Shown piece after piece: positions 56,976 through 58,615 of a stretch of DNA of 64,000 bases. The notes below the pieces were generated by a model. It saw nothing but the letters and a program-made list of their open reading frames with translations, was not told the origin of the DNA and did not search any database. A program made the translations under genes and the position numbers. The stretch lies in the sequence record OK570375; one strand, 5' to 3'. The DNA is from Escherichia phage UoN_LDJ77_1. How positions within the stretch are numbered: the first letter of the stretch is position 1; each line of letters begins with the position of its first letter.

Positions 56976-57755
56976 TTAATTAAAAATATATACTTCATCA
57001 GTTCCATTCTTTTCTTTGGAATGATATATGTTAAAGACGTATTTTTTATTAAGATGCTTAACATTATATTTTTTAGACCATTCTTTAAGAAGAGTGTTTT
57101 CCTTTCCGTGATGCTCTAAAACATTCGACAGTCCAAATTTTATTCCTCTGTCATTTAAAGAATCTAAAAGATTTAAAAGGTCTTTTTCTTCTTCTTCTGA
57201 CCAAAATTTATTATAATCAGCAACTGTTATAAGATATGGAGGGTCCACATATACAAAATCGCCGTCTAGAATTTTGACATCTTTAAAATGCAATGAACTA
57301 AAGATTATTTTATCACAATTTTGCTTAAAGTGATTAAAGCGTTTTTCACTATTTTTGTTTATAGTTCTTTTTCCAAACGGAGTAGTAAAATTTCCTTTAT
57401 CGTTTATACGAATCATATTACTAAATCCGTGAAAATGAAGAACATAAAGTAAAAGAGGATCTCTAGTTTTATTATAATCTTCACGTAATTTCAAAAACTC
57501 TTCTTTTGATGTTTTTGATAGTTTATATTGCTTTATTACTTTTAATACGTCATCCCATGATACATTAATAAGACGCTTATACATTTCAATAATTGGTTCT
57601 TGAATATCATTGGCCAATACAGGACCATTGACGTTCAAAGACACTGATAAACCTCCACAAAATAAATCCACGAATCTGTCATATTTTGGAAAATGAGGCT
57701 TAAGTTCAGGTAATAATGACTGTTTATTACCTGTATACGCGATAGCTCCTAGCAT
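56976..57755 (-). CDS. dam: DNA adenine methyltransferase Dam (259 aa)
   Basis: FxGxG SAM motif (DLFCGGLSV) and DPPY catalytic motif; 259 aa. Confidence 0.95.
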
Positions 57756-58315
57756 TATATTCTCTCATTTATTGCAGCAAAAAACGAATTATATAATTCT
57801 TCATCATATGTATTTGATAGTAATACTAACACGTTTTGTGATTTAGCATATTCATTAAACCTTGCTTGGATGGTTGGATTATCAGTAAATGATTCTCTTT
57901 TTGTCCATTTATTACGTGGATAATATCCGCATGGCAAAAAATCTAATATCATCAATGACACAGGGTTTTCAGTTTTTGTGTATTTTTTTAATTTCTCTTT
58001 ATCTTCTAAATATATTCCAACCGAATCAATAGCTGTACCTCCACCAACTTGGTGTTTAATTTCAATTATATGCTTTTTACCGTTGCGAGAAATAACAATA
58101 TCAAATCTTCTAGTACGCTTCTTAGTTATAAAATTAGAACAAAACAAATTATTTGATTTTTCAGTATCATCGGTTAAAACCATTTTTTCTTGATAACTAA
58201 CTGAACAATCAGTGAAATATTCTTTTACTTTATTAAGTATGAAATTTTCAACTACGGCAGATATTTTATATGAATCTCCGTTTAAAGCCATTTCATGTAC
58301 AATTTTATTAATCAT
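57755..58315 (-). CDS. PD-(D/E)xK nuclease-like protein (186 aa) translationally coupled to dam
   Basis: Core [19 protein letters not shown] (D...ExK, Hjc/restriction-endonuclease-like); GAGGA SD; stop overlaps dam start. Confidence 0.55.
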
Positions 58316-58340
58316 TATATCATCCTCAGCAATTTATTTT

Positions 58341-58370
58341 ATAATACCATAACAAGCTGAGAAAGTAAAC
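58341..58370 (-). promoter_or_regulatory. T4 early-type promoter (GTTTAC-N18-TATTAT) for ORF 57755..58315 and dam
   Basis: Same architecture as other early promoters in the window. Confidence 0.4.
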
Positions 58371-58414
58371 AAATTTATGAAATTTGTGATAAATATTAAT
58401 TTAAAGGAGGACAC

Positions 58415-58615
58415 ATGGCACAAAAATTAATGGCACTTGTTGATGCCATAAAAGGTAATAAAAAACGTATAGCTTTTACTATTTCTGCTATGGTAGGAAT
58501 TTTACTCTGGAACTTTATTTTATCACCCATTGCAATTGCACATGGTATTAATATTCCAGTAGTTACTCTTGATACATTTGTAGATTTAGCATTTGCTTTA
58601 GTTGGGTTGATTTAA
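58415..58615 (+). CDS. small two-TM membrane protein (66 aa), opposite strand, convergent with gene 61
   Basis: Strong SD AAAGGAGG 6 nt before ATG; two hydrophobic helices. Confidence 0.4.
   Translation: MAQKLMALVDAIKGNKKRIAFTISAMVGILLWNFILSPIAIAHGINIPVVTLDTFVDLAFALVGLI

Follow-up and report, generated by a model that had tools for sequence, protein, structure and literature searches.

The 64,000-nucleotide stretch of Escherichia phage UoN_LDJ77_1 DNA analysed here (record OK570375; hereafter the window) comes from a T2/T4-type phage (Tequatrovirus), and the region described shares 99.6% identity with Yersinia phage PYps55T and Escherichia phage UTI-E4, among others. The genes for the adenine methyltransferase Dam (dam) and the DNA primase (gene 61) lie 856 bp apart, both on the minus strand, and between them is an open reading frame (ORF) of 186 codons, ORF186, which encodes a predicted nuclease. 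The minus-strand gene order is sp, a short 61.2, 61.1, gene 61, a 296-bp spacer, ORF186, dam, the dCTPase gene 56 and soc. An earlier reading of the sequence (the original prediction) placed all ORFs correctly and described a 186-residue ORF whose stop overlaps the Dam start, which we find as TAATG at 57753–57757. The features of the ORF186–dam unit are:

57755–58315, minus strand: ORF186, a predicted PD-(D/E)xK restriction-endonuclease-like protein of 186 residues (phrog_8706), from the ORF map, PHROG and the predicted structure.
56976–57755, minus strand: dam, a D12-class N6-adenine DNA methyltransferase (PF02086, E = 6.5e-51).
57753–57757, minus strand: TAATG, the ORF186 stop (TAA) overlapping the dam ATG, from the sequence.
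58323–58327, minus strand: Shine-Dalgarno sequence GAGGA, 7 nt 5′ of the ORF186 ATG, from the sequence.
58341–58370, minus strand: candidate T4-early-type promoter of the ORF186–dam operon, from the T4-early consensus and position.
56936–58403, minus strand: the two-gene cassette (promoter, ORF186 and dam), borders approximate, from comparison with empty-site Tequatrovirus.
58612–59640, minus strand: gene 61 (DNA primase), the upstream flank, from the ORF map.

Dam, which is 100% identical in protein sequence to T2 Dam, is the downstream partner of ORF186, with translational coupling predicted from the TAATG overlap. An early-type promoter and a Shine-Dalgarno sequence had been proposed for ORF186, and both are seen: the promoter candidate combines GTTTAC (58370–58365) with an extended −10 element made of TG (58349–58348), one base and TATTAT (58346–58341). 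A generic promoter scan, however, returned 9 sites against 9.0 expected from shuffles, which is not above chance in AT-rich DNA, so the early-promoter call relies only on the T4-early consensus and on position. The GenBank record of phage JB75 carries the candidate as an annotated promoter (a prediction).

The strongest evidence on what ORF186 does comes from comparing its sequence neighbourhood across phages. Every ORF186 homologue with readable context has a Dam gene directly 3′, overlapping or abutting it, and a D12-class Pfam match is on record for all paired Dam genes except the truncated copy on one metagenomic contig (L006). The pairs, with the identity of each nuclease to that of the window, are:

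MX01 (Dhakavirus): nuclease 63% identical; same locus as in the window; Dam (PF02086) directly 3′.
L007–L010 (metagenomic T4-like contigs): nuclease 57% identical; same locus type as in the window; Dam directly 3′.
L006 (metagenomic T4-like contig): nuclease 49% identical; short contig with flanks not resolved; abutting gene 64% identical to the window Dam.
KPV15 (Jiaodavirus): nuclease 43% identical; a different locus, the pair lying after rIIB and denB; Dam directly 3′.
L012: nuclease 40% identical; a third context, the pair lying directly upstream of rIIA; Dam directly 3′.
L011: nuclease 38% identical; short contig; pair with an overlapping Dam.

The abutting gene on L006 is cut by the contig end, and its 64% identity to the window Dam extends over 210 residues with no Pfam match on record. 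The pair is thus found at three genome positions in T4-like phages, and its junctions are overlaps of 1–35 nt or direct abutments in all homologous pairs, with the exception of the T2 allele, which has a 13-nt gap. Identities to the window fall in parallel, through 63, 57, 49, 43 and 38–40% for the nuclease and 76, 72, 64, 63, 57 and 54% for the methylase, the nuclease diverging faster than the methylase across the pairs. Because adjacency is kept at three positions while both genes diverge together, the pair has been inherited and relocated as a unit. Full-length ORF186 is present in 154 phage records. Among 183 records with T-even dam DNA, 148 hold dam and ORF186 and about 35 hold dam with only a scar of ORF186, and no record in the phage-record searches (154 with full-length ORF186; 183 with dam–ORF186 DNA) had ORF186 without dam. 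Two hallmarks of type II restriction–modification (R–M) systems were therefore found: a conserved nuclease–methyltransferase gene pair, and a nuclease that never occurs without the methylase although a solitary methylase is tolerated. A nuclease always accompanied by its methylase, and a methylase surviving alone, are the pattern expected of R–M modules and their decay. The original prediction had suggested an R–M-like pairing with Dam; strict adjacency at three locations, co-divergence and the absence of a nuclease without Dam give that suggestion comparative support, and this linkage is the strongest evidence for an R–M-like reading.

The predicted structure of ORF186 is that of a nuclease. 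The protein matches phrog_8706 (E = 4e-115), which has no function annotation in PHROG, and it is under purifying selection, with a ratio of nonsynonymous to synonymous differences per site (pN/pS) of 0.22–0.38. An AlphaFold2 model built from 8 sequences (predicted local distance difference test score (pLDDT) of 82.8, predicted template modelling score (pTM) of 0.80) has a single domain with a canonical nuclease core, in which the elements run helix (E23), strand, strand (D72), strand (E85 and K87) and helix, so that the alpha-beta-beta-beta-alpha-beta core fold of the PD-(D/E)xK superfamily is present in the model. Foldseek matches of the model are other PD-(D/E)xK nuclease domains. The four putative catalytic residues, E23, D72, E85 and K87, are invariant in all nine aligned family members, down to 30% identity, and lie as in the catalytic motif, E23 on predicted helix 15–33 and D72, E85 and K87 on predicted strands 66–77 and 80–88. 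A second invariant block, KHQxxxGTAIDS, opens the next helix after the catalytic strands (9 sequences). Both the restriction-endonuclease-fold signature and the expectation that structure prediction would recover a nuclease fold were thus borne out, the motif residues D72, E85 and K87 being invariant and the model and Foldseek agreeing. In size and predicted fold ORF186 resembles a type IIP restriction enzyme, and on this model it would be active as a nuclease.

The family to which ORF186 belongs is tiny. It forms 10 clusters among 5.8 billion proteins, and a profile search of 1.84 billion representatives gave 12 matches, several of them fragments or chimeric artefacts; three (P0008, P0010 and P0016) are chimeric or repetitive assembly artefacts in which the ORF186 C terminus is joined to unrelated sequence, and these were kept out of the alignments. 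As far as context shows, the family is apparently confined to T4-like phages. Direct sequence matches to solved structures were not found with either the single sequence or a profile, an NCBIfam search returned nothing meaningful, and in the BFVD viral fold library only the MX01 orthologue matched. The predicted structure, a single 186-residue nuclease domain, contains no winged-helix or other methyl-reader domain, and searches of Pfam, PHROG and NCBIfam gave no match to the GIY-YIG, HNH or LAGLIDADG families.

Weak similarity to DpnII-type restriction enzymes was detected by several methods. The Pfam DpnII profile matches the window protein with E = 0.005 (16.7 bits) and the family member P0009 with E = 8.3e-5 (22.5 bits), and it matches four of the nine family members in all; these scores lie under the PF04556 gathering threshold of 23 bits over the full-length profile, and the matched segment covers profile positions ~143–235 of 278. 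PADLOC REase_II also matches ORF186 (E = 1.1e-4), and BanI is among the weak family matches. Alignment of ORF186 with a DpnII-family alignment by hhalign gave E = 4.9e-4 and a probability of 31.8%, and paired E23, D72 and E85 with DpnII E152, D201 and E214; the DpnII-family alignment was started from a single sequence, validated with Pfam (335.7 bits), which was then replaced by database sequences. One GenBank record, that of phage Shinka, labels ORF186 a 'putative DpnII restriction endonuclease'.

Compared with the DpnII/MboI-type GATC R–M systems (PF04556 nuclease, methylase DpnM), the phage pair likewise has a D12-class, Dam-family methylase, and besides the catalytic residues the 'RFD(I/F)VI' and 'IE(I/V)' strands and the following glycine-rich loop align. 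The differences are substantial: ORF186 has 186 residues against 288, nothing in it corresponds to the first ~140 residues of DpnII, the scores of 16.7–22.5 bits compare with a cutoff of 23, and K87 of ORF186 stands where DpnII has N216. The ORF186 gene is also upstream of the methylase gene and coupled to it, whereas in the DpnII system the methylase genes come first, and its carrier is a virulent phage with hydroxymethylcytosine (hmC) in its DNA. We therefore regard ORF186 as a new small restriction-endonuclease-like family, possibly of distant DpnII kinship but outside PF04556. With the MunI/EcoRI-like type IIP enzymes it shares ~10% identity, and MunI was not ranked by Foldseek; because the residues at the recognition positions (T94 and S98) differ from those of MunI/EcoRI-like enzymes, its specificity is not AATT. 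A search for a DpnII-type nuclease beside the closest plasmid Dam homologues found none. Separately, the closest plasmid relatives of T-even Dam (35–43% identity, compared with 22–31% for enterobacterial Dam) sit in AlwI-family type IIS R–M systems on plasmids of Lactococcus, Enterococcus and Staphylococcus (L017, L019, L020 and L021).

Comparison with T4 gives the history of the locus. In the T4 record (NC_000866) no gene is annotated in the 309 bp that separate dam from gene 61, and this gap holds an intact ORF66, a small ORF on the opposite strand described below, and, immediately 5′ of dam, the final ~80 nt of ORF186. T4 and its nearest kin are missing 548 bp, which contain the ORF186 promoter and all of the gene but its 3′ end. 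The original prediction was right that about 850 bp (856) lie between dam and gene 61 here, but not that the whole interval is extra relative to T4, from which only the 548 bp are missing. Nor is this an insertion in the window phage: we rejected that view in favour of a deletion in T4, because T4 keeps the 3′ end of ORF186. An 8-bp direct repeat marks the deletion junction in the window–T4 comparison:

57835–57842, no strand assigned: left copy of TTTGTGAT.
58383–58390, no strand assigned: right copy of TTTGTGAT.

T4 retains the sequence to the left of the left TTTGTGAT copy as a 3′ scar (~3127–3210 of the T4 locus, L001) that still encodes the C-terminal stretch of ORF186. In all dam-only records (T4 stocks, T4T, vB_EcoM_F1, Pinarejo, Elenatom, JEP6 and PD112) the match stops at one identical point, query position 867, which indicates a single deletion event. 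The dam genes of T4 and of the window correspond in identity and in locus and differ by 6.5 nonsynonymous changes. By this alignment, the 'orphan' Dam of T4 is a remnant left when a 548-bp deletion between short direct repeats took the nuclease gene and its promoter. A −10-like element, TATATAAT, lies at 57786–57800 (minus strand) within the 3′ end of ORF186, ~35 nt 5′ of the dam ATG, and survives in the T4 scar; it might serve dam as a promoter of its own, in which case the methylase could be made independently of the nuclease.

ORF186 is also present in T2, and its DNA is contained, unannotated, in the 1988 T2 dam GenBank entry M22342. Miner and Hattman reportedly described in 1988 a '536-bp insertion 5′ to dam' in T2 with no detectable homology, a size that agrees with the 548 bp found here. 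In the T2 allele (L016, MH751506, 1501–2046) one nucleotide has been lost from a run of A, so that 'LLQ' ('...SFLLQ') takes the place of the final 9 residues and the protein is 181 residues long, and the frameshift uncouples ORF186 from dam by leaving the 13-nt gap noted above; the laboratory T2 copy of ORF186 may already be impaired. The T4 scar carries the same frameshift variant, and T4 therefore descends from a T2-like allele.

The comparison of the dam–61 interval across T-even genomes that had been proposed as a check revealed three states: empty, full (dam and ORF186) and T4-type (dam and scar). Phaginator, a Tequatrovirus, and Shf125875, a Mosigvirus, show the empty state: they have gene 61, ORF66 and gene 56 but lack both dam and ORF186, and in empty-site Tequatrovirus gene 56 comes directly after ORF66 and gene 61. 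The flanks matched 503 records and T-even dam DNA occurs in only 183, so that about two thirds of Tequatrovirus records appear to have neither gene. Empty-site phages show that gain or loss affects both genes together. Between the window and empty-site Phaginator, gene 56 is only 77% identical whereas gene 61 and ORF66 are 97% identical, a drop that points to a recombination boundary at the cassette.

On balance we favour, with modest confidence, the interpretation that ORF186 and dam form a two-gene, phage-borne R–M-like cassette of which T4 Dam is the orphaned half. In this scheme the candidate early promoter would drive a bicistronic unit, with ORF186 translated first and Dam coupled to it via TAATG. 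The nuclease would cleave at the methylation target of Dam (GATC or a related site), or close by, wherever that target is unmethylated, and Dam, by marking the phage's own DNA, would be the antidote. Possible targets would be unmethylated or under-methylated DNA in the infected cell, including co-infecting phages, among them dam-less T-even relatives, as well as plasmids and Dam-poor host DNA, and the pair would be an accessory, exchangeable unit among T4-like phages. The comparisons establish the pairing; that ORF186 is an active nuclease, that Dam methylation blocks it, and what its sequence specificity and targets may be, we infer, and GATC specificity in particular is suggested only by the sub-threshold DpnII similarity.

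Several points weigh against this interpretation. E. coli host DNA is already Dam-methylated, and a GATC enzyme sensitive to N6-methyladenine (m6A) would spare the usual host; few type II enzymes can cut DNA that carries glucosylated hmC, and self-protection by Dam may be unnecessary. In Hattman's work dam-minus mutants of T2 and T4 were reportedly viable, which for T2 would argue against a lethal effect of restriction without modification, a point tempered because the T2 allele has the C-terminal frameshift that may impair the nuclease. The DpnII similarity is under the Pfam threshold with an hhalign probability of only 32%, the match is limited to the catalytic core common to many PD-(D/E)xK families, and Foldseek did not recover MunI as the nearest structure. 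Among the 4-bp palindromes of the window GATC is by far the scarcest relative to expectation, with 69 observed against 215 expected (an observed/expected ratio (O/E) of 0.32), but this avoidance is not specific, being as strong or stronger in cassette-less relatives (O/E 0.0–0.5). We rejected it as evidence for a GATC nuclease because it does not discriminate, relatives without dam and ORF186 avoiding GATC equally or more; in the DNA compared (the window and the loci L001, L004, L005, L014 and L015), GATC avoidance is a subfamily-wide trait and not tied to the cassette.

A bolder version of the cassette interpretation, which we think unlikely, is that glucosyl-hydroxymethylcytosine in the DNA does not stop the nuclease from cutting unmethylated GATC-type sites, and that the cassette is a weapon among T-even phages that destroys co-infecting dam-less relatives, whose glucosyl-hydroxymethylcytosine genomes are immune to ordinary nucleases. 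If this were true, its targets would include roughly two in three Tequatrovirus records and every Mosigvirus-type locus encountered, T-even Dam would be the antidote, and T4 would be an 'immune cheater' that has kept the antidote only.

The dependence on methylation might instead run the other way. ORF186 could cut Dam-methylated DNA (fully or hemimethylated GATC, as DpnI or MutH do) with unmodified cytosine, Dam making or completing the mark on host or foreign DNA and glucosyl-hmC shielding the phage, in a 'mark-and-cut' device for host-DNA degradation. Strict linkage to Dam fits any dependence on m6A and not protection alone, enterobacterial host DNA is Dam-methylated, and cytosine-exclusion genes lie nearby (the gene 56 dCTPase here, and denB beside the KPV15 copy). 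We nevertheless hold such a device to be distinctly improbable: the single 186-residue nuclease domain has no winged-helix or other methyl-reader domain, the sole family-level similarity is to DpnII, a methylation-sensitive enzyme, and with a host that is already methylated the phage Dam would add little, while T4 does well with Dam alone. About as little probability goes to a selfish homing nuclease that cuts the cassette-less allele, at the junction of gene 61 and ORF66 with gene 56 or in the gene 56 region, so that repair copies ORF186 with a hitch-hiking dam. T4 has a known hot-spot of homing around gene 56, where segF is annotated; the pair is polymorphic in presence and absence between conserved genes, with empty sites; and the 77% identity of gene 56 against 97% for gene 61 and ORF66 separates cassette from empty-site phages. 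The three unrelated genome positions, at which Dam is always kept and the genes co-diverge, speak against homing, as a homing nuclease has no reason to retain one passenger, and ORF186 matches none of the GIY-YIG, HNH and LAGLIDADG families.

Two further readings separate the nuclease fold from any cutting guided by Dam, and we regard both as very unlikely. A nuclease-fold DNA-binding or regulatory protein might control dam expression or target Dam without cutting, for which one could cite the position of ORF186 upstream of dam with translational coupling, and the small regulators that are common in R–M systems. Yet all four canonical catalytic residues are invariant throughout the family, which is not expected of an inactivated fold, and Dam works without ORF186 in T4. 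Alternatively, ORF186 might be a nuclease with a Dam-independent role in the degradation of cytosine-containing DNA, in repair or in recombination, adjacent to dam through shared gene-block ancestry only; T4-like phages do have many small accessory nucleases. Against this, the adjacency outlasts relocation to three contexts and divergence to 30–40% identity, with junctions that are always tight, and none of the 183 records with dam–ORF186 DNA has ORF186 without dam.

The third ORF of the interval, ORF66, proved not to belong to the cassette. It and two neighbouring elements are:

58415–58615, plus strand: ORF66 (phrog_2024; 'RB69ORF029w').
58388–58395, plus strand: GATAAATA, a late-promoter-like element upstream of ORF66, matching the T4 late consensus TATAAATA at 7 of 8 positions.
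58430–58449, minus strand: a terminator-like hairpin with a T-run, 3′ of gene 61 and within the ORF66 coding sequence, from a sequence scan.

The original prediction described ORF66 as a 66-residue ORF with two transmembrane segments and a near-perfect Shine-Dalgarno sequence. The ORF and its Shine-Dalgarno sequence (AAGGAGG, 4 nt before the ATG) are there, and its end falls within the gene 61 stop region, but only one strong hydrophobic segment was found (~residues 17–41), the C-terminal one being weaker and containing two Asp residues. ORF66 lies on the late-transcribed strand and encodes a conserved hydrophobic protein; proteins of this family, 63–66 residues long, occur in 692 phage records from Tequatrovirus, Mosigvirus, Dhakavirus and Gaprivervirus, and in each case the gene converges on gene 61. 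The T4 copy is intact (L001, 3239–3439), encodes a protein 92–94% identical, and is unannotated in NC_000866 and AF158101. Since ORF66 is present in T4 and in phages that lack both dam and ORF186, we rejected it as a part of the module; it adjoins the 3′ end of gene 61 wherever it occurs, in empty-site Tequatrovirus as well as in Mosigvirus, Dhakavirus and Gaprivervirus. The idea that it is a non-coding artefact of the gene 61 terminator was likewise rejected, as pN is lower than pS and both its length and its motifs persist from genus to genus. An ATAAATA-like core lies at a fixed distance upstream of ORF66 in all eight phages examined, from five lineages, with the exact TATAAATA in MX01, and ORF66 is probably a late membrane protein. 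The hairpin at 58430–58449 would keep gene 61 transcripts apart from the ORF186–dam unit, and a terminator in the same region is annotated in the ASO78A and fPS-65 GenBank records.

Two differences from T4 were noted in the surroundings. The gene at the T4 61.2 position (59810–60166, minus strand) encodes 118 residues here against 208 in T4, the short form being common to T2 and other cassette phages, and at 56083–56930 (minus strand) there is no segF homing-endonuclease gene between gene 56 and soc, unlike in T4.

Virus-borne R–M modules are a known kind of system. Precedents are the chlorovirus CviAI GATC system, in lytic viruses, and P1 EcoP1I, in temperate phages, in both of which the virus carries a nuclease and a protecting methylase, its own genome being methylated and other cellular DNA being the target. 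The pair described here differs in that its usual host is Dam-methylated, which makes host DNA unlikely as the main target, and in that the phage DNA is hypermodified at cytosine; the setting is unusual in that the phage is virulent and has hmC DNA, the nuclease is very small and belongs to a new family, and its gene comes first in the coupled pair. The T-even homing endonucleases (SegA–G and MobA–E) are, like ORF186, accessory nucleases encoded patchily between conserved genes, with segF two genes away in T4, but the fold of ORF186 is PD-(D/E)xK and not GIY-YIG or HNH, and its association with a methylase is obligatory. ORF186 is annotated 'hypothetical' in more than 150 genomes, and its DNA has been public since 1988. 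Our literature search found no paper analysing it, and the main review of T4-related genomes includes neither dam nor a phage nuclease–methylase pair among modification and restriction genes. The strict, relocatable nuclease–Dam pairing, the fold and the view of T4 Dam as a remnant of the pair, all supported by the present analysis, appear to be new.

T2 and T4 Dam are among the best-studied DNA methyltransferases, yet their benefit to the phage is unclear; to our knowledge, the only known T-even dam phenotype is the protection of non-glucosylated mutants from P1 restriction. T4 has been left with an 'orphan' methyltransferase, without the nuclease gene and promoter, whereas in the window phage both members are present. 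Should Dam prove to be the protective half of a cassette, the reason why T-even phages carry dam would become directly testable, and the T4 enzyme would be a dated example of R–M decay by loss of the nuclease gene. A very small restriction-enzyme-like family would also become available, as a possible reagent that may tolerate hypermodified DNA, and as a possible factor in phage–phage competition, of relevance to phage cocktails assembled from Tequatrovirus isolates.

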